32,000 nucleotides of DNA from Delftia acidovorans NBRC 14950 (lineage in GTDB: Bacteria > Pseudomonadota > Gammaproteobacteria > Burkholderiales > Burkholderiaceae_C): assembly GCF_001598795.1 (NCBI RefSeq), contig NZ_BCZP01000017.1:90001-122000 (forward strand), written 5' to 3'. How positions within the stretch are numbered: the first letter of the stretch is position 1; the number at the start of each line of letters is the position of its first letter. Positions 4,397 through 22,348 of this stretch are shown in pieces. A program made the position numbers and the translations under genes. The notes beneath the pieces were generated by a model. The model was not told where the DNA came from, did not search any database, and worked only from the letters and a program-made list of their open reading frames with translations.

Positions 4397-5386
4397 TCAG
4401 GGCTTGAAACCCGAGCGCTGCACCACCGGCGTCCACTGCGCGCGGTAGGCCTTGAGCATCTCGGCCGTCTGCGCGCTGCTGCTGGAGACCGGGGTCAGCC
4501 GGCTGGCCTCGAATTTCTGGCGCGTGTCGGGCTCCTTCATGATCTCCTGCACCATGCGCGACAGGCGCTCGGCAATGTCGGGCGCCATGCTCTGCGGCGC
4601 GAACAAGGTGTTCCAGCCCATGCCCGACAGGTTCAGGCCCGATTCCTTGAGCGTGGGGATGTCCGGCGCCATGGTGCTGCGGCGCTCGCCCGATACGGCC
4701 AGCACGCGGATCTTGCCGGCCTCGTGCTGGGGCAGCAGCACGTCGAAGGTGTCGATGGCCAGCGGCACCTGGCCACCCACCAGGTCGGTCAGCAGCGGGG
4801 CCGAGCCCTTGTAGCCCACGGTTTCGGTCCGGACCTTGGCGGCCTCGCCCAGCATCAGCGAGAAGAAGTGCGGCAGGCTGCCCGTGGCCGGCACGCCCAC
4901 GTTGGCCTGCTGCGGATTGGCGCGCAGCCAGGCCAGCAGGTGCGACAGCTGCCTGACGGGCACGGCACTGGCCACGGCCACGCCGAATTCGTAGCGATTG
5001 ACCTCGCTGACCGGGCGGAAGTCCTTGTCCGGGTCGTAGCCCGAGTCGGGGAACACCAGGGGCGTCACCAGCATCACGGCCGGGTTGGCCAGCAGCAGCG
5101 CGGGCTGGGAGGCCGGCGCGTTCTTCACATACTGGGCCGACAGGCGGCCGCCCGCGCCGGGCTTGTTCTCCACCACCACGGGCGAGCCCACGTGCGCCTG
5201 CAGCTTGTCGGCCACGATGCGCGCCACGCGGTCGGTGGCGCCGCCGGGCGGGTAGCCGACGACGATGCGCAGCGGCGCCTTGCCCGGAAACAGCGGCTCG
5301 GCCGCCGTGGCACTTCCAGCCAGCCAGCTGGCGGCCGAAACAGCCGGTGCCAGGGCCAGGATCTGGGTCAGGGTTCTTCGCTGCAT
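4397..5386 (-). CDS. Bug/TctC-family (tripartite tricarboxylate transporter) periplasmic substrate-binding protein
   Basis: This is the internal ATG at 5386 of track ORF 4397..6787, preceded by GGAGAG. The product starts MQRRTLTQILALAPAVSAASWLAGSATA (signal peptide) and continues ...IVVGYPPGGATDRVARIVADKL...VVVENKPGAGG, the Bug family signature. Confidence 0.85.
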   Translation of the reverse strand: MQRRTLTQILALAPAVSAASWLAGSATAAEPLFPGKAPLRIVVGYPPGGATDRVARIVADKLQAHVGSPVVVENKPGAGGRLSAQYVKNAPASQPALLLANPAVMLVTPLVFPDSGYDPDKDFRPVSEVNRYEFGVAVASAVPVRQLSHLLAWLRANPQQANVGVPATGSLPHFFSLMLGEAAKVRTETVGYKGSAPLLTDLVGGQVPLAIDTFDVLLPQHEAGKIRVLAVSGERRSTMAPDIPTLKESGLNLSGMGWNTLFAPQSMAPDIAERLSRMVQEIMKEPDTRQKFEASRLTPVSSSSAQTAEMLKAYRAQWTPVVQRSGFKP

Positions 5387-5563
5387 CGCAAACTCTCTCC
5401 TTGCATGGACGGATTCCCGTGCGGAACGCACGCCGCACAATGTAGCGGCCTCAAAAAGCCCGTTGCCGCCGATATTGACCAGGGTTAACCCGAGGCAAGA
5501 CGCCCTGCGCCGCTCGGGCATCGCGACAGCCTGGCGAAGCCGACTCGGCGACAATCGCCCACC

Positions 5564-6676
5564 ATGAGCTTCGCCCCCCTGACCAACGACACCTTCCTGC
5601 GCGCCTGCCGGCGCCAGGCCACCGACTACACGCCGCTGTGGCTGATGCGCCAGGCGGGCCGCTATCTCCCCGAATACAAGGCCACGCGCGCCCGGGCCGG
5701 CAGCTTCATGGGTCTGGCCACCAACGTGGACTACGCCACCGAGGTCACGCTGCAGCCACTGGAGCGCTTCCCGCTGGATGCGGCCATCCTGTTCTCCGAC
5801 ATCCTGACCGTGCCCGACGCCATGGGCCTGGGCCTGTCCTTTGCCGAAGGCGAAGGCCCGCGCTTTGCCAAGGTGGTGCGCGACGAGGCCGCCGTGGCCG
5901 AGCTGGCCGTGCCCGACATGGACAAGCTGCGCTATGTGTTCGACGCCGTGACCAGCATCCGCCGCGCGCTCAATGGCCGCGTGCCGCTGATCGGCTTCTC
6001 GGGCAGCCCCTGGACCCTGGCCTGCTACATGGTCGAGGGCAAGGGCAGCGACGACTACCGCCTGGTCAAGAGCCTGATGTATGCGCGCCCCGACCTGATG
6101 CACCGCATCCTGTCCGTCAACGCCGACAGCGTGGCCGCCTACCTGAACGCCCAGATCGATGCGGGCGCCCAGGCCGTGATGGTGTTCGACAGCTGGGGCG
6201 GTGTGCTGGCCGACGGCGCCTTCCAGGAATTCAGCCTGGCCTATACCAAGCGCGTGCTGGCCGGACTCAAGCGCACGGGCGCCGATGGGCAGGACGTGCC
6301 GCGCATCGTCTTCACCAAGGGCGGCGGCATCTGGCTGCCCGACATGAAGGACCTGGACTGCGAGGTGCTGGGCCTGGACTGGACGGCCAACCTGGCCCGC
6401 GCCCGCGCCATCGTCGGCGGCGAGGTGGGCGGACCCGGCAAGGCGCTGCAGGGCAACATCGACCCCAATGTGCTGTTCGCACCGCCCGAGCGCGTGGCCG
6501 AGCAGGCGCGCGCCGTGCTCGACAGCTTCGGCGCCCCGCACACCGACAGGACCACCACGGGCCCCACGCACATCTTCAACCTGGGCCACGGCATCAGCCA
6601 GTTCACGCCGCCCGAGCATGTGGCGGCCCTGGTGGAGACCGTGCACAGCCATTCGCGCGCCCTGCGCCAGCGCTGA
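5564..6676 (+). CDS. hemE: uroporphyrinogen decarboxylase
   Basis: The 370-aa product contains [20 protein letters not shown] and [14 protein letters not shown], canonical HemE motifs. Confidence 0.95.
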
Positions 6677-12218: not shown

Positions 12219-13223
12219 CTAGTCCCGTGGCGCCAGCGGGCTGCGGTCTTCGTCGCGCGCCAGCAGGTAGGTGGGACGGCGCTTGACTTCGTCGTAGATG
12301 CGGCCGATGTACTCGCCCAGGATGCCGATGGACATCAGCTGCACGCCCGAGAACAGCATGATGCTGGCCGCCAGCGTGGGCCAGCCGTCCAGCGGGTTGC
12401 CGAAGATCAGCGTCTCCATGGTGATCCACAGGCCGTAGAGCAGGGCCGCCAGCGAGATGATCCCGCCCACCACGCTCCACACGCGCAGCGGCAAGGTGGT
12501 GAACGAGGTCAGACCCAGCAGGGCCAGCGAGCCCAGGCGCCGGAAATTGAAGCTGGACGCACCGGCCGTGCGGTCGGCCGGCACGAACGGCAGGGCCGCA
12601 GCCTTGAAGCCCACCCAGGCGTACAGGCCCTTCATGAAACGGTGGCTCTCCGGCAGGGCCTTGAGCGCATCGGCCACGCAGCGGTCCAGCCAGCGGAAGT
12701 CGCCGGCATTGGGCGGGATCTTCACCAGGTTGCCGGCATTCATGAGCCGGTAGAACAGGTTGGTGCCCACGCGCTTGGCGCCGCTTTCGGCGCCCCGGTC
12801 GGCGATCACGCCATAGACCATGTCGTAGCCGGACTGCCACAGCTCGCACATCTGGGGCAGCATCTCCAGCGGATGCTGGAAGTCGGCGTCGATCAGCACC
12901 ACGGCGTTGCCGCGCGCATGGTCTATGCCGGCCGACAGCGCCGCCTCCTTGCCGAAGTTGCGCGACAGCGCCAGATAGCGCACGGGCAGTTCCTGGGCCA
13001 TGCGCAGCGCGATCTCGTGCGTGGCGTCACGGCTGCCGTCGTTGACGACGATCAGCTCGTAGTCGGGCGTCAGCGTGCGCACCGTCGCGTCCAGGGCGCG
13101 CAGGAACGCCTCCAGGTTGCCCTCTTCATTGTGGGCTGGCACCACGCAGCTCAGCCGCAGCGGGGGGCGCGGCAGCATCCCCTTGGGAGCGGCCGGAGCA
13201 ATGTCAGCATGCAATTCGGTCAT
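12219..13223 (-). CDS. family 2 glycosyltransferase, ArnC/DPM1-like polyprenyl-phosphate glycosyltransferase
   Basis: The 334-aa product carries SCVVPAHNEEGNL, ELIVVNDGSRD and VLIDADFQHP, plus two C-terminal TM helices. Its start overlaps the upstream gene's stop (ATGA at 13220-13223). Confidence 0.85.
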   Translation of the reverse strand: MTELHADIAPAAPKGMLPRPPLRLSCVVPAHNEEGNLEAFLRALDATVRTLTPDYELIVVNDGSRDATHEIALRMAQELPVRYLALSRNFGKEAALSAGIDHARGNAVVLIDADFQHPLEMLPQMCELWQSGYDMVYGVIADRGAESGAKRVGTNLFYRLMNAGNLVKIPPNAGDFRWLDRCVADALKALPESHRFMKGLYAWVGFKAAALPFVPADRTAGASSFNFRRLGSLALLGLTSFTTLPLRVWSVVGGIISLAALLYGLWITMETLIFGNPLDGWPTLAASIMLFSGVQLMSIGILGEYIGRIYDEVKRRPTYLLARDEDRSPLAPRD

Positions 13224-14839
13224 AGGCCAGCATTGTCAGCGGGCTGGCTGCCCGCGCGCGGCAACACGTCAAAAACCGCATAGGCATAGGGACTGGGCCG
13301 AGGAAAACGCCATCCCGAGCGTTGCACCGTGAGCACACGCGCCTCCTGCGGCAGGCCCAGCTTCGCCAGCCAGGCCTGCGCCTGCTGCTCGCAATCGCGC
13401 GATTTCGCGGTCGGGCCGGGCTCGCTGGCCACCGGGCCGCGCGGGCACAGCAGCAGCCCGGGCTGCTGGCGCCAGTCCGACAGCGCCAGCACGCGCGCAT
13501 ATTCGCTGTCGGGCAGGCCGGGAATGGTGCGCAGATGCGGCTGGGCATAGAAAGACAGCATGGCGTTTTCCGCCCAGTCGCCGCCCACCCACTGCAGCGG
13601 CTGCTGCGGGTGGCGCTGGTTCCAGGACAGCACGATGGCCTGCGCCGCATCGGCCGCAGGGCGGTAGTAGTCGGAGCCGCTCTTGCGCGCATTGCCCCAG
13701 CCCGCGGCCAGCCCGATCACCAGCACCACGGCCATGCTCGGCCACCAGGCGCGGCGCAGCGCGGCCAGCGCGGACTGCGTCACGGCAGGCGCCTCGGCGT
13801 CCAGGTTGCGCAGCCACAGCAGCACGAAGGCATAGCCGATGGGAATGGCCCAGGGCGTGGACAGCTCCACCACGCCGGTGGCGCCAAAGCCCAGCGTCGC
13901 AAGCCAGGGCATGAGGGCCAGCCAGAACAGCGTGTCGCCGCGCCCCTGCCAGCACCAGCTGCGGCGCAGGAAACGCGCACTCCAGCGCAGCCAGCCGCCG
14001 CCTTGCTGGCGGGCCTGCATGAAGCCATACACCAGGCACACGGCCAACCAGGCCGGCAGCCAGTAGAAGATGGGCGCCAGCGCAAAGCGCAGCACATAGC
14101 CCCACACCACCTGCCCGCCGCCCTGGTCCATGGCATAGCCCAGCGTCACCCACTGGTGGTGGGCAATCCAGGCCACATGCGGCGCCAGCGCCAGGCCAAA
14201 GGCTGCCAGCGCCACGTAGGGCCGAGGAGTGAGCAGCCACTGGCGACCTTCACGCACCAGGAAGATGGGCAGCAGGAAACCGGCCAGGAACACACCGCTG
14301 TAGTACTTGCTGAGCATGCAGGCGGCCGAGACCACGCCCAGCGCCACGCTGAAGGCCACGCCGCGCGCGCCCTTTTCCTGCCAGCTGGCCAGCAGCAGGG
14401 CCGCCGCCCAGGGCCACAGGGACAGCAGCTGGCTGTTGGCGTTGAACTTGCCGGCCAGCGTCGTATACGGAAAGCACCACAGCAACAGGGCCGCGCCCAG
14501 CGGCGCCAGGCGCGCCAGCCCCAGGCGCCTGCCCAGCACGTAGACGCCCCAGATGCCCACGCCCACATTGGCATAGGACAGCAGGCGATAAAAGCCGTCG
14601 TTCTGCGGGAACACCATGAACCACAGGCCGACCACCCAGGCGAAGAACGGCGGATGCTTGTGCGTGCCCAGCTGCAGCGGCTGGGCCCAGGCATAGTTCT
14701 CCAGCATGTCGTGGTAGCCGTCCAGATTGCCATTGGCCAGCCAGGACACCAGGGCCCAGAGCAGGCAGGCCAGCGTCACCATCCAGAGCATGGCCGCGCC
14801 CGTGGGAACGCCTGCCGGGGCAGAGGGGGAGGATTTCAT
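13220..14839 (-). CDS. ArnT/PMT-like (GT39/GT83-type) polytopic membrane glycosyltransferase
   Basis: This is the internal ATG at 14839 of track ORF 13220..16120 (MKSSPSAPAGV...). It is a multi-TM protein with an N-terminal loop motif (YHDMLENYAWAQPLQLGTHKHPPFFAWVV) and a soluble C-terminal domain. MLWMV at 14791 is an alternative start. Confidence 0.75.
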   Translation of the reverse strand: MKSSPSAPAGVPTGAAMLWMVTLACLLWALVSWLANGNLDGYHDMLENYAWAQPLQLGTHKHPPFFAWVVGLWFMVFPQNDGFYRLLSYANVGVGIWGVYVLGRRLGLARLAPLGAALLLWCFPYTTLAGKFNANSQLLSLWPWAAALLLASWQEKGARGVAFSVALGVVSAACMLSKYYSGVFLAGFLLPIFLVREGRQWLLTPRPYVALAAFGLALAPHVAWIAHHQWVTLGYAMDQGGGQVVWGYVLRFALAPIFYWLPAWLAVCLVYGFMQARQQGGGWLRWSARFLRRSWCWQGRGDTLFWLALMPWLATLGFGATGVVELSTPWAIPIGYAFVLLWLRNLDAEAPAVTQSALAALRRAWWPSMAVVLVIGLAAGWGNARKSGSDYYRPAADAAQAIVLSWNQRHPQQPLQWVGGDWAENAMLSFYAQPHLRTIPGLPDSEYARVLALSDWRQQPGLLLCPRGPVASEPGPTAKSRDCEQQAQAWLAKLGLPQEARVLTVQRSGWRFPRPSPYAYAVFDVLPRAGSQPADNAGL

Positions 14840-14940: not shown

Positions 14941-15891
14941 TCAGGTCATCAGCGCCACGGCGCCCGAGAAGCTCAGGAAGGCCAACACCGTGGACACCAG
15001 GATGATGCGGGCCACGCGCCCGCCGTGCGCCCCGAAGCGCTCGGTCAGCAGCGAGACATTGCTGGCGCTGGGCAGCGCAGCCAGCAGCACCAGCGCCACA
15101 AAGGCCTCTTCGCCGAGCGGCAGGCCCAGCGCCATGGCCGCACGGGCCACGGCCCAGACCAGCAGCGGATGGATCAGCAGCTTGGCCAGCGCAATGGGCA
15201 CGTAGTCGCGCGCGGCCACGCGCTCGTGGCTGTTCATCTGCGAGCGCGCCAGCACGGCGCCAATGGTGAACAGCGCCACGGGCGAGGCCGCGCCCGCCAG
15301 CATGGCCACGGTGCGGTCGATGGGGCCGGGCAGCGTCCAGCCTGCCGCCGAGGCCACGCCACCCAGCACGATGGCCCAGGGCATGGGATTGGCGGCCATG
15401 CCGGCAAACGCCCTGCGCAGCGCCACGGACACGCCATGCCCGCCCGGCAGCCCCAGGCGCGACAGCGCAATGCACAGCGAGGTGGTCACCACCATGTCGA
15501 TGGCCATGGTGACGATGACCGGGCCCGCCGCACGCTCGCCCAGCAGCGCCACCAGCATGGGCACTCCCATGAAGCCGGTGTTGGGAAAGGCCGCCACCAG
15601 CGCGCCAAAGGCCGCATCGTTCCAGCCCACGCGCCGCACGGTCAGCGCCACGGTGGCACCCACCATCAGCAGCGCGCACAGCAGGTAGACCACGGAGACG
15701 CCCACATCCAGCAACTGTGCAATCGGCGTCTGCGCGCCAAAGCGGAACAGCATGCAGGGCAGCGCGAAATACAGCACGAAGGCATTGAGCCCCGGTATCG
15801 CCGCCTGCGGCAGCACGCCACGCCAGGTGGCCGCAAAGCCGCAGGCCACAAGCGCGAAGAAGGGAAAGGTGATCAGCAGGACGGACAGCAC
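14941..15891 (-). CDS. AEC (auxin efflux carrier) family transporter
   Basis: The 316-aa polytopic membrane protein has a family-typical N-terminus (MLSVLLITFPFFALVACGF) and C-terminus (ALPSASNVSLLTERFG). The start codon at 15891 is GTG. Confidence 0.8.
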   Translation of the reverse strand: MLSVLLITFPFFALVACGFAATWRGVLPQAAIPGLNAFVLYFALPCMLFRFGAQTPIAQLLDVGVSVVYLLCALLMVGATVALTVRRVGWNDAAFGALVAAFPNTGFMGVPMLVALLGERAAGPVIVTMAIDMVVTTSLCIALSRLGLPGGHGVSVALRRAFAGMAANPMPWAIVLGGVASAAGWTLPGPIDRTVAMLAGAASPVALFTIGAVLARSQMNSHERVAARDYVPIALAKLLIHPLLVWAVARAAMALGLPLGEEAFVALVLLAALPSASNVSLLTERFGAHGGRVARIILVSTVLAFLSFSGAVALMT

Positions 15892-15957
15892 GCGGCGATT
15901 CTGGCAGCAAGCCGGTGCCGCTGCCGCGCGCCCGTGTCACCGCGCGGACGCCGGGCG

Positions 15958-15990
15958 AAAAAAAACCTGCCGGAATACGCATCCGGCAGG
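15958..15990 (-). terminator. rho-independent terminator of the GTPase/Roadblock operon
   Basis: On the minus strand the hairpin is CCTGCCGGAT-GCGTAT-TCCGGCAGG, followed by T8. It lies 30 nt after the stop at 16020. Confidence 0.8.
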
Positions 15991-16019
15991 TCGGGCCTGA
16001 GCGCAACAAGCGCGTGCGC

Positions 16020-16379
16020 TTACAGCGCCAGGTCCTTCTCGACGTCCTGCACCTTGCGACGGGCCAGCGCCAGATTGGAGCGGCTCTTGTCCAGCACCAG
16101 GTAGAAGAACACACCTTCATGGGCGGCCACGGGCCGGATGATGTGGTACTGGTGCGTCAGGGTGATCAGGATGTCGTCGATGGCGTCATCGAGCTTGAGC
16201 ATGCGCATGGTCTTGAGCTTGGCGCGCACCACCTCCGTGTTGCCGGCAGCGGCCAGCTCCATGTCGAGGCCGGAGCCCACGCTGCCCATGAGCATGCCGC
16301 TGGTGCTGTCCACCAGGGCCGCGCACAGGGCGCCATCGATGCCCAGCAGGCCGTTCAGAGAATCATGTATCGAAGCCAT
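16020..16379 (-). CDS. Roadblock/LC7 (MglB-like) domain protein, copy 2
   Basis: This is the internal ATG at 16379 of track ORF 16020..16562. The 119-aa product reads MASIHDSLNGLLGIDGALCAALVDSTSGMLMGSVG...DDILITLTHQYHIIRPV...FFYLVLDKSRSNLALARRK, matching the bacterial Roadblock pattern. Confidence 0.75.
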   Translation of the reverse strand: MASIHDSLNGLLGIDGALCAALVDSTSGMLMGSVGSGLDMELAAAGNTEVVRAKLKTMRMLKLDDAIDDILITLTHQYHIIRPVAAHEGVFFYLVLDKSRSNLALARRKVQDVEKDLAL

Positions 16380-16477
16380 ATGCCACCTTTTCAAATAGCA
16401 AGGGCAGGCTGTGCGATGGACCACCGCGCCCGCTCCTCGGGGGAAGAAAACCAAACTTCTGCAGCGGATGCCGCGGA

Positions 16478-16879
16478 TCAGGAACGGGACAGTTCGGAGG
16501 CCACTTCGCCCGCCGCCCACAGCGCGCGGCCCAGCAGGGCGCTTTGATCGACCACCATGCACAGGATGGCCGGCTGGTTGCCGGCCACGGCCTGAAAGAG
16601 GACGGTGCCCAGCTCGGTCTCGAAGGTCAGCCGCCGGCAGGACTTGTGGCCTATCTCGGTGGCCACGGCCCTGGCCATGGCCATGAGCGAGCCCGCCATG
16701 GCCGACAGGCGCTCCGTCGGCAGTTCGCTCCTGACCCGCAGGGAGGTGATCTCGAAGCCGTCAGGCGTGCACAGCAAGGCGATGTGCACGCCCTCCAGGG
16801 GCGCCACCACGCGGTGGAGCACATCGCTGCCAGCTTCGATCAGAGAGGGAGGAATCCGGGGAAGCGTTGGTGTCTTCAT
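16478..16879 (-). CDS. Roadblock/LC7 (MglB-like) domain protein, copy 1
   Basis: The 133-aa product contains LEGVHIALLCTPDGFEITSL...ERLSAMAGSLMAMARAVATEIG, typical of the Robl_LC7 core. Its start overlaps the GTPase stop (ATGA at 16876-16879). Confidence 0.75.
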   Translation of the reverse strand: MKTPTLPRIPPSLIEAGSDVLHRVVAPLEGVHIALLCTPDGFEITSLRVRSELPTERLSAMAGSLMAMARAVATEIGHKSCRRLTFETELGTVLFQAVAGNQPAILCMVVDQSALLGRALWAAGEVASELSRS

Positions 16880-17439
16880 ACCTGACTTTGCAAGGAAAGC
16901 AAGGAAACGAGCACCCCCAGCGCATCCAGCAACTGCTGCCGGTCACGGGGGTCCGCCTGGATGACAGGCACTATACCGTGACCTCTGTCCGCCAAGGCGC
17001 TGCTGAATGCTTCCTGCTGTTGCTCGCTGGCATCACGGCAACTGACCACCACTACCAGGGGCCCGGATTCCAGAGAGGCGATCTCGGCCAGGCACTGCGC
17101 CGCGTAGTCCGGTGCGCGGGCGTCGCAGACATCCACCATCAGCAGCACGCCCACCGAGGCATTGAGCACCCAGCGGCGCACGAAGTCGAAGCGTTCCTGC
17201 CCCGGGCTGCCCACCAGCTGCAGCCGCTCTCCACCGCCCAGGTCGATCTCGCCGAACTCGGCACCCACCGTGGTGAATTCCTTGGAATGGGAGGCCAGGT
17301 CCAGATTGGGCACATCCGCCGCCGCCATCAACGCGCCGCACAGGCTGCGCAGGGCCGTGGTCTTGCCTATGCCCATGGGGCCCACCAGGCTCACCCGTAC
17401 CAACCCGGCAGCAGGCTGCGCGTTCATCCACAGGCTCAT
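16876..17439 (-). CDS. small Ras-like GTPase of the MglA/CvnD type
   Basis: This is the internal ATG at 17439 of track ORF 16876..17997, with GGAGGAG 4 nt upstream. The P-loop is GPMGIGKT, switch I is FTTVGAEFG and switch II is VGSPGQERF. The position of the NKxD (G4) motif reads SCRD. Confidence 0.8.
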   Translation of the reverse strand: MSLWMNAQPAAGLVRVSLVGPMGIGKTTALRSLCGALMAAADVPNLDLASHSKEFTTVGAEFGEIDLGGGERLQLVGSPGQERFDFVRRWVLNASVGVLLMVDVCDARAPDYAAQCLAEIASLESGPLVVVVSCRDASEQQQEAFSSALADRGHGIVPVIQADPRDRQQLLDALGVLVSLLSLQSQV

Positions 17440-18182
17440 GCCACTCCTCCGCGCCGGATCCAGCCGGCCAGCTTCTGCACCCACTGGCGCGGCAGGCCGG
17501 CCACCGCGTCGGGCGCCTGTGCGCGGCTGCGGCGCAGCGGCGGGAGATCGTTTTCGCGCGCGGGCCGCAGGCTGCACTCCAGCAGGCTGCGCAGCCGGGG
17601 ATGGCGCAGCAGTTCGGCCACGGCGCGGGCCTGCATGCCGCTGTGCTCGCACAACAGGGCCACCTCCATGGGGCCACGGCACAGCATGGCCAGGGCACGC
17701 AGGCATTCGGAGTTGTTCCACGGCGCGGGCAGCGCCACCCAGGCCTTGAGCTGGAAGCGGTAGCGGCAGTCCACGCCCTGCTGCTGCAGATCGTCCAGCG
17801 CCTGCGCCAGCGTATGCGACGTCGCCACCTGCTGGCGCACCGTCCAGTCCATGAGGAAGACGGCCGCCCGGTCCAGCATGTCGATCAGGTCGGACAGCGT
17901 GAAATTCATGTCCAGATAGGTGGCCAGGCGCTGCTGCGTGCGCTCCAGGTGCTGTCCCTGGGGCACTCCACCCACGTAGACCACGCAGGGCATCCACCCT
18001 GCGGCCTCGGGCGCGGGCATGTTGCCATCTACGACCAGCACCTGGGCGCTGACCAGGGGCACCTGCCGCCAGCCGCGCAGCGACTTGCGGGACGCCACGG
18101 CGAACAATGCCTCAAAACGCTGCTTGAGCAGAGGAGACCACAGCTCGGCAGCCAGGCCGATCTCGTCTGTAGTGCGAGCCAT
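17436..18182 (-). CDS. hypothetical protein, first gene of the GTPase/Roadblock operon
   Basis: The ATG at 18182 has GGTGAGG 8 nt upstream; the track ORF starts at a GTG at 18191. I recognise no family. The C-terminal third (LRALAMLCRGPMEVALLCEHSGMQARAVAELLRH) looks like a winged-helix, DUF742-like segment. Its stop overlaps the GTPase start (ATGA). Confidence 0.6.
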   Translation of the reverse strand: MARTTDEIGLAAELWSPLLKQRFEALFAVASRKSLRGWRQVPLVSAQVLVVDGNMPAPEAAGWMPCVVYVGGVPQGQHLERTQQRLATYLDMNFTLSDLIDMLDRAAVFLMDWTVRQQVATSHTLAQALDDLQQQGVDCRYRFQLKAWVALPAPWNNSECLRALAMLCRGPMEVALLCEHSGMQARAVAELLRHPRLRSLLECSLRPARENDLPPLRRSRAQAPDAVAGLPRQWVQKLAGWIRRGGVA

Positions 18183-18275
18183 CTTTGACACCTCACCGGA
18201 TAGGAACTGAAATGGACAAACCAGATTCGCCCGTGACAGAACATCGGCGAAGACTGATATTTTGGATAGTTTTTA

Positions 18276-18300
18276 CACATTACTCACTTGATTTAATGTG
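18276..18300. promoter_or_regulatory. 7-bp inverted repeat CACATTA-N11-TAATGTG in the AT-rich divergent promoter region between the GTPase operon and rep
   Basis: The repeat is read directly from the sequence. It sits in the second most AT-rich stretch of the window (18190-18340). On the minus strand it overlaps a plausible promoter (TTGGTC-N18-TTAAAT). Confidence 0.4.
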
Positions 18301-18463
18301 AACTTTTCTATTTAGACCAACGCCGCCACAGTGCGGACCAGAGTGGCCGCGAGATTTGTCGCCGAATTCCAAGGGTGCTTACACCTGGCCTGATGGCCAC
18401 GATCCCCGAAGCGGTATGCTCCCGCTTCCCTCACTTTCACGCCTTTCCCCGCGCAACGCACCC

Positions 18464-20533
18464 ATGTCCGCAGGACTCAATCTGGCCCAGCTCCAGGCCG
18501 TCCACTACACCGAAGGCCCCTGCCTGGTCCTGGCCGGCGCGGGCTCGGGCAAGACACGCGTGATCACGCACAAGATCGGGCGCCTGATCGAGATGGGCAT
18601 GGCGCCGCGCCGCATCGCGGCCATCACCTTCACCAACAAGGCCGCAGCCGAAATGCGCGAGCGCGCGGCCGGCCTCATCGGCCGCCAGGCCAAGGACGTG
18701 CTGGTGTGCACCTTCCACGCCCTGGGCGTGCGCATGGTGCGCGAGGACGGCCATGTGCTGGGCCTCAAGCCCCAGTTCAGCATCCTGGACGCCGACGACG
18801 TGACGGGCATCCTCAAGGACTGCTCGGGCGGCACCACCGACCTGGCCACGGCGCGCCAGTGGCAGTGGACCATCAGCAACTGGAAGAATGCCGGCTGGGA
18901 CAGCCGCAAGGCCCTGGCCATGGCCCAGGACGACAACGAGCGCAGCACGGCGCTGATCATGCAGCGCTACGAAGAGCGCCTGACCGCCTACCAGAGCGTG
19001 GATTTCGACGACCTGATCGGCATGCCCATGCGCCTGCTCAAGAACCACATCGAGGTGCGCGAGAAATGGCAGCGCCTGCTGGGCCATGTGCTGGTGGACG
19101 AATACCAGGACACCAACGCCACGCAGTACGAGCTGCTCAAGATGCTGGTGGGCAGCCGCGCCCACTTCACCGCCGTGGGCGACGACGACCAGAGCATCTA
19201 CGGCTGGCGCGGCGCCACGCTGGACAACCTCAAGAAGCTGCCGGTGGAGTTCCCGCAGCTCAAGGTGATCAAGCTGGAGCAGAACTACCGCTCCACCTCG
19301 GCCATCCTGCGCGCGGCCAACAACGTCATCCAGCCCAACCCCAAGCTCTATCCGAAGACGCTGTTCTCGGAGCTGGGCGAGGGCGAGCCCGTGCGCATCG
19401 TGGACTGCGACACCGAGGAGCACGAGGCCGAGCGCGCCGTCGCCCGCATCCAGAGCCTGCGCGCGGCCAGCAACCCGCCGCCGGACTGGAAGGATTTCGC
19501 CATCCTCTACCGCGCCAATCACCAGGCCAAGCCCTTCGAGAAGGCCTTGCGCAAGGCCAGCATTCCCTACAAGGTCTCGGGCGGCACCAGCTTCTTCGAC
19601 CGCGCCGAGATCAAGGACCTGTGTGCCTGGTTCCGGCTGTGGATCAACAACGACGACGACCCCGCCTTCCTGCGCGCCATCGGCACGCCCAGGCGCGGCA
19701 TAGGCCACACCACGCTGGGCAAGCTGGGCGAGTTTTCCTCGCAGCACAAGCTCAGCATGTTCGGCGCCCTGTTCGCGCACATGCTGGAAGCGGCCCTGCC
19801 CAAGAAGGCGCATGACAGCCTGCTGGAGTTCGGCCGCTACATCAACGACCTCGAATACCGCGCCCGCCACACGCTGGGCGCCGAGCAGTCGCGCGGCTTC
19901 ATGCTCGACTGGCTCAAGGAGATCGGCTACGAGCAGTACCTCTACGACAGCGAGGACAGCGAATCGGTCGCCGCCGCGCGCTGGAGCAACGTGCTGGAGT
20001 TCTGCGACTGGATGTCCCAGCGCGCCGGCGGCCAGATCGAGGATGCGGCGGGCACGACCACGCACACCGAGGTCAAGAGCCTGCTGGAAGTGGCGCGCAA
20101 CATCGCCCTGCTGTCCACCATCAGCGAGCGCGAGAAGGAGCAGGACATGGTCATCCTGTCCACCCTGCATGCCTCCAAGGGCCTGGAATGGCCGCATGTG
20201 ATGCTGGTGGGCGTGACCGAGGGCATGCTGCCCTTCAAGCTCGACGACGACAACGGCCGCCAGCAGAAGGTCAGCGACGAAACCGCCCAGCGCCTGCAGG
20301 AAGAGCGCCGCCTCATGTACGTGGGCATCACGCGCGCCCGGCGCTCGCTGGCCGTGAGCTGGACCAAGCGCCGCAAGAAGGGGCGCGAGATGGTCTCCAC
20401 CCTGCCCAGCCGCTTCATCAAGGAAATGGGCCTGGACGCCGCCACCTCGCGCGAGGACCCGCGCGAGAAGCTGCGCCAGCTGCGCGCCGAGTTCGCCCTC
20501 AAGGCGCAGCAGTCCACGCCCGCCGACTCCTGA
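18464..20533 (+). CDS. rep: ATP-dependent DNA helicase Rep (UvrD/Rep superfamily 1)
   Basis: This is the in-frame ATG at 18464. MSAGLNLAQLQAVHYTEGPCLVLAGAGSGKTRVITHKIGRLI...AAITFTNKAAAEMRER is close to E. coli Rep. The product is 689 aa. LVDEYQDTN and the motif VI region VGITRA are present. Confidence 0.88.
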   Translation: MSAGLNLAQLQAVHYTEGPCLVLAGAGSGKTRVITHKIGRLIEMGMAPRRIAAITFTNKAAAEMRERAAGLIGRQAKDVLVCTFHALGVRMVREDGHVLGLKPQFSILDADDVTGILKDCSGGTTDLATARQWQWTISNWKNAGWDSRKALAMAQDDNERSTALIMQRYEERLTAYQSVDFDDLIGMPMRLLKNHIEVREKWQRLLGHVLVDEYQDTNATQYELLKMLVGSRAHFTAVGDDDQSIYGWRGATLDNLKKLPVEFPQLKVIKLEQNYRSTSAILRAANNVIQPNPKLYPKTLFSELGEGEPVRIVDCDTEEHEAERAVARIQSLRAASNPPPDWKDFAILYRANHQAKPFEKALRKASIPYKVSGGTSFFDRAEIKDLCAWFRLWINNDDDPAFLRAIGTPRRGIGHTTLGKLGEFSSQHKLSMFGALFAHMLEAALPKKAHDSLLEFGRYINDLEYRARHTLGAEQSRGFMLDWLKEIGYEQYLYDSEDSESVAAARWSNVLEFCDWMSQRAGGQIEDAAGTTTHTEVKSLLEVARNIALLSTISEREKEQDMVILSTLHASKGLEWPHVMLVGVTEGMLPFKLDDDNGRQQKVSDETAQRLQEERRLMYVGITRARRSLAVSWTKRRKKGREMVSTLPSRFIKEMGLDAATSREDPREKLRQLRAEFALKAQQSTPADS

Positions 20534-21039: not shown

Positions 21040-21127
21040 CCGGCCCCCGAGCCTGCACACGAGCCCCCTGCTCCCTCTCCACTTATTACCCCTTACTCTT
21101 CGCTCCTTCCATCACCGGACTCAAGCC

Positions 21128-22348
21128 ATGACGACTCCTACACACCTGGATCGCCGCAAGCGCCCAAGCCGCACGCCGACACCCCTGCAGTGGGCCCTGG
21201 CCATGGGACTGGGCGCCACGCCCTGGCTCGGCGCCCAGGCGCAGACCGCGCCCCGCCCCCTGTCCGAGGACGCCTGGCGCCAGTGCGCCGCCACCACGGA
21301 CAACCAGTCTCGCCTGGCCTGCTTCGACACCTGGGCACAGCAGCAGCAGCCGCTGACCGCGCCGCCGGCCACCGGCTGGAGTGCTCCGGCCGCCAGCGCT
21401 GCAGCCGATCCTGGCGCCCTGCCCACGCCCGCCCCCGTGGTGACGGCCGACAGCGGCCAGGGCCTGGCGCTGCCCACCACCCCCACCAACGGCGGCTGCC
21501 GCGACCCGCGCTACAGCGAGCTGTCGCGCTACTTCGAGCTGGAACCGGGCAGCGACTGCGGCACCTTCAGCTTCCGCGGCTACCGGCCCATGTCCGTGTC
21601 CGTGGTGACGGCCGACCATGTCAACCGGCAGCCCACCACGCCCGGCAAGGACCCTGCGCAGTCGCAGCCCTACAAGACCGAGGAAATGCGCGTGCAGCTG
21701 TCCGTGCGCACCAAGGTCGCCCAGGGCCTGCTGACCAGCAGCACCTCGGCGGGCAAGGACTCGCTGTGGGTCGGCTACACCCAGCAGTCGTACTGGCAGC
21801 TGTTCAGCCCGGCCATCTCGCGGCCCTTCCGCAACACGGACCACGAGCCCGAGATCTTCTACGTCTACCCCACCGATGCCCGGCTGCCCTTCGGCTGGCG
21901 CTGGCGCTACAGCGGCGTGGGCCTGGTACACCAGTCCAACGGCCAGAGCGATCCGCTGTCGCGCAGCTGGAACCGCTGGTATCTGATGACCGGCTTCGAG
22001 CTGGACAACCGCTGGCAGCTGCACGCCAAGGCCTGGCAGCGCATCCGCGAAAGCGCCGAGCACGACGACAACCCGCGCATCCAGGACTACATAGGCCGGG
22101 GCGAGGTGAAACTGGGCTGGAACGTCAATGCGCAGAACTATCTGGGCTTCACTGCGCGCGGCTCGCTGGGCCAGGGCCGCGGCTCCGGCCGCGTCGAATG
22201 GCTGCGCACCCTAGGCGAAGGATGGAACGGTGGCAAGAGCAATTTGCGCCTGCATGTCCAGCTTTTCAGCGGATACGGTGACAGCCTGATCGATTACAAC
22301 TACAAGCGCACCGTGCTCAGCGTGGGTTTCAGTCTTCTGGACTTCTAG
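21128..22348 (+). CDS. pldA: outer-membrane phospholipase A
   Basis: This is the internal ATG at 21128 of track ORF 20738..22348. It carries the catalytic region GLVHQSNGQSDPLSRSWNR, a C-terminal beta-barrel ending ...SVGFSLLDF, and an N-terminal RLACFDTW motif. Confidence 0.85.
   Translation: MTTPTHLDRRKRPSRTPTPLQWALAMGLGATPWLGAQAQTAPRPLSEDAWRQCAATTDNQSRLACFDTWAQQQQPLTAPPATGWSAPAASAAADPGALPTPAPVVTADSGQGLALPTTPTNGGCRDPRYSELSRYFELEPGSDCGTFSFRGYRPMSVSVVTADHVNRQPTTPGKDPAQSQPYKTEEMRVQLSVRTKVAQGLLTSSTSAGKDSLWVGYTQQSYWQLFSPAISRPFRNTDHEPEIFYVYPTDARLPFGWRWRYSGVGLVHQSNGQSDPLSRSWNRWYLMTGFELDNRWQLHAKAWQRIRESAEHDDNPRIQDYIGRGEVKLGWNVNAQNYLGFTARGSLGQGRGSGRVEWLRTLGEGWNGGKSNLRLHVQLFSGYGDSLIDYNYKRTVLSVGFSLLDF

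Follow-up and report, generated by a model that had tools for sequence, protein, structure and literature searches.

What kind of system is encoded by an operon that holds a Ras-like GTPase and two Roadblock proteins and no sensor kinase? Such an operon of four open reading frames, all on the minus strand, lies at positions 16020-18182 of a 32,000-nucleotide stretch from the genome of Delftia acidovorans NBRC 14950 (contig NZ_BCZP01000017.1, positions 90,001 to 122,000). In the following, the window means this whole stretch. An initial annotation had compared the operon with the conservons of Streptomyces and had left both its architecture and its first protein unplaced. We find that both can be placed. 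The locus is almost certainly the D. acidovorans copy (Daci_0555-0558) of the Group 3 MglA small-GTPase module. Because the locus itself stands in a census of 2015 (PMC4316618), the module is already known in kind, and the locus is not new but has been catalogued since then. New here are the recognition of the fourth protein, by its predicted fold, as a second and highly constrained Roadblock at the locus, and the repertoire of fusions in which its domain is found. The four genes, which we call A to D, and the features that accompany them are as follows.

18182-17436, minus strand: gene A, 248 amino acids, the protein of unknown function (DUF) of Group 3 systems
17439-16876, minus strand: gene B, 187 amino acids, Ras-superfamily small GTPase of MglA Group 3
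16879-16478, minus strand: gene C, 133 amino acids, coupled protein of the Roadblock/MglB type
16379-16020, minus strand: gene D, 119 amino acids, second, cryptic protein of predicted Roadblock fold
18183-18340: AT-rich leader, an intergenic region shared with the divergent gene rep
16380-16477, minus strand: C-D spacer of 98 nucleotides, the sole non-overlapping junction of the operon
15992-15964, minus strand: intrinsic terminator at the end of the operon

The prokaryotic MglA homologues were split into five groups by Wuichet and Søgaard-Andersen (2015, Genome Biol Evol, PMC4316618). According to their census, Group 3 is found almost exclusively in beta- and gamma-Proteobacteria. Its G4 motif deviates from [NT]KxD and its G5 motif is of the DAR type with a conserved arginine; common to Groups 2-5 are a GTPGQ motif in G3 and a threonine which replaces the arginine finger. 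The genes of Group 3 are arranged as DUF, MglA and one or two MglB, and for the DUF the program Phyre2 gave a receiver-like N-terminus and a winged-helix C-terminus. Table S2 of the census contains the entry Daci_0555 of D. acidovorans SPH-1, described as "MglA Group 3: DUF>MglA>MglB, 187 aa". An exact-sequence look-up found all four proteins of the window on record in D. acidovorans genomes and excluded a mismatch of the locus with Daci_0555-0558: protein A falls within the 90% identity cluster of Daci_0555 (ABX33201), C has the same sequence as ABX33203, and D the same as ABX33204, both of strain SPH-1.

The locus agrees with the published description in its gene order, in a DUF with predicted receiver-like and winged-helix parts, in the threonines (T56, T57) in place of the G2 arginine finger, in the G-x-PGQ sequence of G3, in the deviant G4 and in the D-x-R sequence of G5. 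It also agrees in its taxonomic range. A pattern scan of genomes, with one genome per species, returned 80 loci, and all of them come from Burkholderiales (Delftia, Comamonas, Acidovorax, Variovorax, Collimonas, Ralstonia and others) or from unclassified metagenome-assembled genomes (MAGs). The arrangement of DUF, MglA and MglB is present in the window and in 62 of the 80 loci. There is one difference. The census scored a single MglB for the loci of Delftia, Comamonas, Collimonas and Variovorax, whereas here gene D is predicted to encode a second Roadblock fold. Since the fourth gene would thus be a Roadblock gene, these loci become systems with one GTPase and two Roadblocks, like those of Neisseria, Leptothrix and Acidithiobacillus.

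Protein B is a Ras-superfamily GTPase with the catalytic signature of Groups 2-5. Its motifs are GPMGIGKT (G1), TTVG (G2), GSPGQERF (G3), SCRD instead of NKxD (G4) and D-P-R (G5). Conservation of these motifs was read from an alignment of 20 homologues, in which the invariant residues include K26, T27, T56, T57, G77, P79, G80, Q81, R135, D163 and R165. GPMGIGKT and VGSPGQERF, by which the protein had been recognised at the outset as a GTPase of the xPGQ MglA/CvnD type, are invariant or almost so. Across the homologues G3 reads G-[SC]-PGQ, and G4 reads S-[CA]-R-[DP] with R135 alone invariant; in G5, which reads D163-[PV]-R165, both the aspartate and the arginine are invariant. The Pfam model MMR_HSR1 matches B with 25.6 bits, over its cut-off of 21.9, and Ras remains under its cut-off. 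The CvnD-type model ATP_bind_1 (PF03029) reaches 24.3 bits against a cut-off of 27, and a precomputed match to PF03029 exists for several homologues. The profile of B matches the Rab/Sec4 structures of the Ras superfamily at 1e-9. Membership in Group 1 of MglA fails on the catalytic motifs, as B has TTVG, GSPGQ and SCRD where Group 1 has an intrinsic arginine finger, TVPGQ and NKxD.

Protein C is, as judged from its profile, a canonical coupled MglB/Roadblock protein. The Pfam model Robl_LC7 (PF03259) scores 21.8 bits, narrowly below the cut-off of 23. A profile built from 21 orthologues matches in the PDB a Roadblock protein (9jue_D, 4e-13), CvnB5 (3leq, 3e-6), Rv3364c (2.5e-6) and 7f8m (4e-6). 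The sequence T-x-D-G is invariant in C (T38, D40, G41), and C thus has the invariant aspartate-glycine pair which was reported for the MglBs coupled to Groups 2-5 (PMC4316618). In the NCBI records C is named "roadblock/LC7 domain-containing protein".

The Roadblock pattern had been proposed for both downstream proteins. This was borne out by profile for C and by predicted fold for D (TM 0.8 to structures of MglB, LAMTOR and the CvnB type): neither Pfam nor NCBIfam matched D at E ≤ 1, and the best match of its profile in the PDB had an E value of 0.14. The AlphaFold (AF2) model of D has a pLDDT of 89.4 and the order of elements a-b-b-a-b-b-b-a. Foldseek returned 112 matches at E ≤ 1e-3, among them Roadblock, MglB and LAMTOR structures (3kye, 6hjm, 6h5b, 5x6u and 7yh1) with TM 0.75-0.81, an rmsd of about 2 Å and E values of about 1e-6; a weak match to MglC (7ct3, TM 0.57) was also found. 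The model thus shows D as a second protein of Roadblock fold. It is highly conserved, with the invariant motifs ELAAAGNTEV-RAK, YH-x2-RP and NLAL, and its name in UniRef is "Roadblock/LC7 domain-containing protein". The operon therefore codes for two divergent Roadblock proteins, one identified by profile and the other by fold, as the initial annotation had it. C and D are not detectable as paralogues by sequence (hhalign probability 5%), and their relation is seen at the level of the fold.

The order of the four genes is conserved, and A, B and C are coupled in translation. The four co-directional genes and the ATGA overlaps between A and B (17439-17436) and between B and C (16879-16876) lie exactly where they had been described. 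A survey of the gene neighbourhood had been set beforehand as a test of the module, and the full A-B-C-D order was kept in 62 of the 80 genome loci; 13 loci have a two-gene version A'-B' without Roadblock genes and 5 are partial. The full order spans Comamonadaceae, Collimonas, Glaciimonas, Undibacterium and Ralstonia. At the genome loci the commonest junction is an overlap of four nucleotides, which was seen at 37 A-B and 48 B-C junctions. The C-D junctions, compared in L001-L079, nearly all have a spacer, of 58-262 nucleotides. In metagenomes, 36 loci had enough upstream sequence to be counted, and in 30 of these B and C lie upstream of D. Conservation decreases in the order D, B, C, A. Within Burkholderiales the identity to the protein of the window is 63-97% for D and 45-92% for B, and it falls to 22% for A. 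In Comamonadaceae the operon is located between rep and the AEC transporter gene, and elsewhere in other contexts.

The paralogous A'-B' pair is found in many Comamonas genomes, where a gene for an A-like protein of 275-334 amino acids and one for a GTPase of 179-180 amino acids are followed by a gene for an MFS-type transporter (L050, L052, L053, L055, L058, L060-L067 and L071, at about 5000-6530 in each). It corresponds to the Daci_0776-type entry of the 2015 census (PMC4316618). Because 13 loci hold A'-B' without Roadblock genes, A and B appear to be the minimal unit. Since A is always adjacent to B, usually overlaps with it and is retained in the paralogue that lacks Roadblocks, A would be an obligate partner of B.

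The lead protein A, for which no family could be named at first, has no match in Pfam, NCBIfam or PADLOC. Its AF2 model (pLDDT 80.8) is composed of a receiver-like domain (about 1-145, including a long helix from 96 to 138), a winged helix-turn-helix (about 158-205), a linker that is disordered and, at the C-terminus, a helix with the invariant W241. According to this model A is a pseudo-receiver and winged-helix protein; AlphaFold and Foldseek agree here with the published description of the Group 3 DUF (PMC4316618). Receiver domains of FrzS are among the fold matches of A, and one homologue (P0183) has precomputed matches to HTH_IclR and MarR_2. A true phospho-accepting receiver was considered and rejected. 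The fold is CheY-like, but the acceptor aspartate is not conserved: other residues stand in place of D52, at the end of b3, in Ralstonia, in Variovorax and in several loci from MAGs of unclassified Burkholderiales and Alcaligenaceae, and neither the acidic pair nor the lysine of receivers is conserved in the A family. Over the whole family, with the two-gene paralogue included, the only invariant residues are the tryptophans W38, W148 and W241. For these reasons, that is, an acceptor aspartate that is not conserved and three tryptophans as the sole invariant residues, we take the N-terminus to be a pseudo-receiver. The three tryptophans are candidate interface residues; one of them is located within the C-terminal amphipathic helix. 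Assignment of A to the PATAN/DUF4388 family was also rejected, as there was no Pfam match and hhalign with a 28-member PATAN alignment gave probabilities of 0.7% and 0.3%. The family-model searches proposed at the outset thus produced MMR_HSR1 for B and a score close to the Robl_LC7 cut-off for C, no DUF742 for any of the four proteins and no PATAN for A.

The domain of protein D is not confined to this operon. We searched its profile against 1.84 billion cluster representatives and obtained 2072 proteins at E ≤ 1e-3 and 386 at E ≤ 1e-30. Domain architectures were surveyed in the best 150 cluster representatives (P0312-P0461). In 107 of these the D-like domain is the C-terminal part of a longer protein. 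The Pfam partner domains are DUF4388/PATAN (31 proteins), Response_reg (24) and BLUF (5), and in a few proteins each TPR, a Cro-type helix-turn-helix and MazE/AbrB; CZB occurs in one protein, on the C-terminal side of the D-like domain. The D-like domain itself is without a Pfam model in these 150 relatives. An association of PATAN with MglB has been reported before (Makarova 2006, as related in a paper that cites it), and we found no description of BLUF-Roadblock fusions in the literature. The fusions of BLUF with a D-like domain (P0324, P0343, P0346, P0357 and P0373, and a further 15-member cluster) have a middle domain of about 200 residues with alpha/beta structure, which is found without BLUF, too. 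This middle domain shows a weak similarity to the C-terminal half of B (hhalign probability 16%, E 1.5e-3), too weak to claim that it is a homologue of the GTPase. It is possible that the BLUF-D proteins have the architecture of a Rag-like pseudo-GTPase combined with a Roadblock.

From these observations one might go further and propose that D represents a distinct and not previously described Roadblock subfamily, marked by AAAGNTEV[VI]RAK, YH-x2-RP and NLA[LM]AR, that it is a widely reused signalling module, either free-standing, as the best-conserved part of Group 3 operons, or fused, as the C-terminal end of REC-PATAN, BLUF, TPR and HTH proteins (or followed by CZB), that it would be the entry point of signals into the GTPase cycle and that BLUF-(~200 aa)-D proteins would act as Rag-like pseudo-GTPase/Roadblock switches under the control of light. 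Taken as a whole this proposal is speculative and in our estimate unlikely to hold. Two further arrangements of D-like genes were seen in metagenomes. At eight loci (L081, L082, L083, L086, L088, L089, L091 and L106) an additional, more divergent D-like gene (E about 1e-20) is found directly 3' of D, which gives the order A-B-C-D-D'. At L126 (5260-6363) and L129 (5968-6357), orphan D-like genes with none of A, B or C nearby lie beside an OmpR-type response regulator; at L129 a putative sensor adjoins this regulator, and at L126 there are two tandem D-like genes and a malate-synthase-G-like gene nearby.

How could the four proteins work together? By analogy with other GTPase-Roadblock systems, we consider it fairly probable that the module is a GTPase switch which is tuned by the Roadblock pair and which gates the winged-helix protein A. 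We suggest the following steps. B would alternate between a triphosphate-bound and a diphosphate-bound form. C and D would supply a Roadblock dimer, most likely a heterodimer of the two, which would dock on the switch face of B and would set its rate of hydrolysis or exchange, as MglB does on MglA and Ragulator on the Rags. The nucleotide state of B would control A, and the winged helix of A would then alter the transcription of target genes. As no kinase feeds the system, the input would probably enter through the Roadblock proteins or through the pseudo-receiver of A. The parts of this scheme differ in strength. Roadblock proteins are typically dimeric on GTPases, which is established for MglB and Ragulator, and a role of C and D as regulators of B, drawn from the same analogies, appears to us quite probable. 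That A is the DNA-binding output of B is suggested by the model of A, and we propose it more tentatively, with chances slightly below even.

The eukaryotic Rag GTPase-Ragulator system offers a parallel for the Roadblock pair in this scheme, in that a divergent pair of Roadblocks serves as a platform for small GTPases, as a heterodimer in LAMTOR and as proposed here; LAMTOR chains are among the best matches of D. The Delftia system, by contrast, is prokaryotic and encoded in an operon, it lacks a membrane anchor and its GTPase is not one of a pair, and the likeness would be a structural analogy or a very remote homology.

Several observations weigh against a Roadblock-tuned switch that acts on transcription through A. 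The resemblance of A to receiver domains is weak, as its best Foldseek matches in the PDB have E values from 7e-3 and a target-normalised TM of about 0.5, and its winged helix is marginal by sequence, with profile matches to the HlyU/ArsR winged helices at E 0.011. An alignment of the upstream regions gave no convincing palindrome and no conserved operator for A. In B, the G4 motif is without asparagine and lysine, and the aspartate is not conserved across the family, so that the nucleotide specificity of B is uncertain. D-like genes without a detectable GTPase gene nearby were present at 6 of the 36 metagenome loci; because such orphan genes exist and because a spacer parts D from C, D may have partners besides B. 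Finally, the only phenotypes on record for a Group 3 locus, those of Snodgrassella, were interpreted by the authors in terms of type IV pili and colonisation, and not of transcription (PMC11112851).

The initial annotation had stated that no function was assigned to such a module. This is largely true: we found no biochemical study of any Group 3 system in the literature, and the hints come from two organisms. At the Group 3 locus of Snodgrassella (Neisseriaceae) two mglB genes are coupled, and there is in addition an orphan gene, mglB-3, which codes for 121 amino acids and is nearer to mglB-2 (PMC11112851). The mutation G78R in the orphan mglB-3 led to a colonisation advantage and to altered colony edges (PMC11112851), and a genome-wide screen found mglB-2 and mglB-3 to be beneficial for gut colonisation (Powell et al. 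2016, as cited in PMC11112851). In Neisseria meningitidis, a South-western screen for DNA-binding proteins picked up NMB0478, and a null mutant of this gene was normal in both piliation and competence (PMC2885667). Table S2 of PMC4316618 has an entry for the NMB0476 operon, of which NMB0478 may be the third gene.

Instead of acting on transcription, the module could be a switch for polarity or motility as in Myxococcus. In its GTP form B would then label a pole of the cell and govern type IV pili or surface behaviour, the roles of C and D would be those of a GTPase-activating protein and an MglC-like adaptor, and A would be a pseudo-receiver scaffold like RomR. The MglA-MglB system of Myxococcus and Thermus (Group 1, with MglC and RomR/RomX) has in common with the Delftia operon a Ras-like GTPase, regulators of Roadblock fold and a receiver-like partner, RomR there and A here. 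Both C and D superpose on MglB (TM 0.8 for D), and the weak match of D to MglC and the FrzS receivers among the matches of A point in the same direction, as does the Group 3 locus of Snodgrassella, which affects gut colonisation and the flares at the colony edge and is linked by the authors to type IV pili (PMC11112851). However, B lacks the arginine finger, the TVPGQ and the NKxD of Group 1, and no pilus or motility genes adjoin the operon in any of the contexts seen. The partner A has a putative DNA-binding winged helix, which would be superfluous in a polar scaffold, and the Delftia genes differ from the Group 1 system in being united in one operon with translational coupling. The normal pili and competence of the NMB0478 null mutant also speak against a polarity switch, provided that this gene belongs to the operon. 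We therefore regard a polarity or motility switch as unlikely.

It might also be asked whether D belongs to the module at all. D could be a signalling adaptor in its own right that only happens to lie beside the other genes, and A, B and C alone would then form the functional module. In the window an AAGGTGG ribosome-binding site lies within the spacer 5' of gene D, and at nearly all C-D junctions D is set apart by a spacer and has a ribosome-binding site of its own, in contrast to the overlapping genes A, B and C. D-like domains exist as orphans and in fusions with sensor modules of unrelated kinds, the conservation of D far exceeds that of B, and a single MglB was scored at the locus in 2015 (PMC4316618). 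On the other side, D follows C in the 62 loci with full order and has B and C upstream in the 30 metagenome loci mentioned above, and the terminator scan predicted no terminator-like site in the C-D spacer. Roadblocks are also typically dimeric on GTPases, as is established for MglB and Ragulator, and the predicted fold of D matches both. An independent D seems somewhat less probable still than a polarity switch.

Closest to the comparison made at the outset is a reduced conservon, that is, a CvnABCD system (MglA Group 2) which lost its kinase and has A in place of CvnC. Like the Delftia operon, the conservon (CvnA-D/Mfp) has a Roadblock partner and a small GTPase whose switch II is of the GTPGQ type and whose G4 and G5 motifs are non-canonical; the operon can thus rightly be called related to conservons and yet distinct from them. 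The matches of C to CvnB5 and Rv3364c, the sub-threshold ATP_bind_1 match of B and the deviant G4 and DAR-type G5 common to Groups 2 and 3 (PMC4316618) would fit a reduced conservon, but we consider it highly improbable, because none of the four proteins is kinase-like and the flanking genes code for a Rep helicase and an AEC transporter and not for a CvnA-type membrane histidine kinase, no protein of the operon matches DUF742 (the Pfam family of CvnC) at E ≤ 1, the order regulator-GTPase-Roadblock-Roadblock, with two Roadblocks and a predicted pseudo-receiver and winged-helix partner, is unlike histidine kinase-Roadblock-CvnC-GTPase, and Group 3 stands apart from Group 2 in the phylogeny of 2015 (PMC4316618). 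Membership of the operon in the conservons proper fails on the missing kinase and DUF742 protein. A defence system was also considered and discarded, as PADLOC gave marginal P-loop noise only; NCBIfam contributed no informative model for A, B, C or D.

A GTPase switch that is tuned by C and D and gates A thus remains our preferred reading, and the control signals of the operon can be described alongside it. Because the homologues of A begin with MA(R/K)T, we take gene A to start at the ATG at 18182 rather than at the GTG at 18191. A ribosome-binding site, GGTGAGG, is located 8-9 nucleotides 5' of this ATG. The leader 18183-18340 had been described as an AT-rich promoter region. It is AT-rich indeed, with a GC content of 43.7% compared with 68.7% for the whole window. 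The promoter scan found no sigma-70 consensus on its minus strand, and the sole promoter-like site in the leader (18233-18261, plus strand) is oriented toward rep. The operon promoter, which the leader presumably holds, is for this reason inferred and not located. A loosely conserved AT-rich block is present 5' of gene A in Delftia (TTCACATTAAATCAAGTGAGTAATGTGTAAAA) and in Comamonas (TTGTAATAAGGTGTTA...), as seen at 18260-18300 of the window on the minus strand and in L001-L013. This block could be a promoter or an operator.

At the other end of the operon, the strong terminator noted at first was found by the terminator scan with a stem of 11 bp including 7 GC pairs, a loop of 7 nucleotides and the sequence TTTTTTT. 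An attenuator or terminator in the C-D spacer is not supported: hairpins are predicted there with z from -1.1 to +0.15, those of the window itself being not significant (z = -1.1), and the spacer sequence is poorly conserved. Some C-D spacers, for example those of L029 and L034, have a GC-rich hairpin followed by a run of T, with fold energies that are not significant. D may be expressed differentially from A-B-C. A search with Rfam across 15800-18500 gave no match to a structured RNA at E ≤ 1.

The flanking genes were confirmed as those of an AEC transporter (Mem_trans/AEC) and of a UvrD/Rep helicase. Other genes of the window are unrelated to the operon. On the minus strand, a gene for a family-2 glycosyltransferase (12219-13223) overlaps one for a PMT_2/ArnT-like membrane glycosyltransferase (about 13220-14839), and an outer-membrane phospholipase A1 is encoded on the plus strand at 21122-22345.

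Group 3 modules are present in many beta- and gamma-Proteobacteria, Neisseria, Stenotrophomonas, Xanthomonas and Acinetobacter included. For this family our analysis adds that the loci of the Delftia type appear to encode one GTPase and two Roadblocks, that the second Roadblock, as recognised by its predicted fold, is the most constrained component, and that its domain is reused together with light-sensing and with receiver/PATAN modules. The copy of Delftia or Comamonas is tractable and could reveal how a bacterial Ras-like switch without a kinase connects to transcription.

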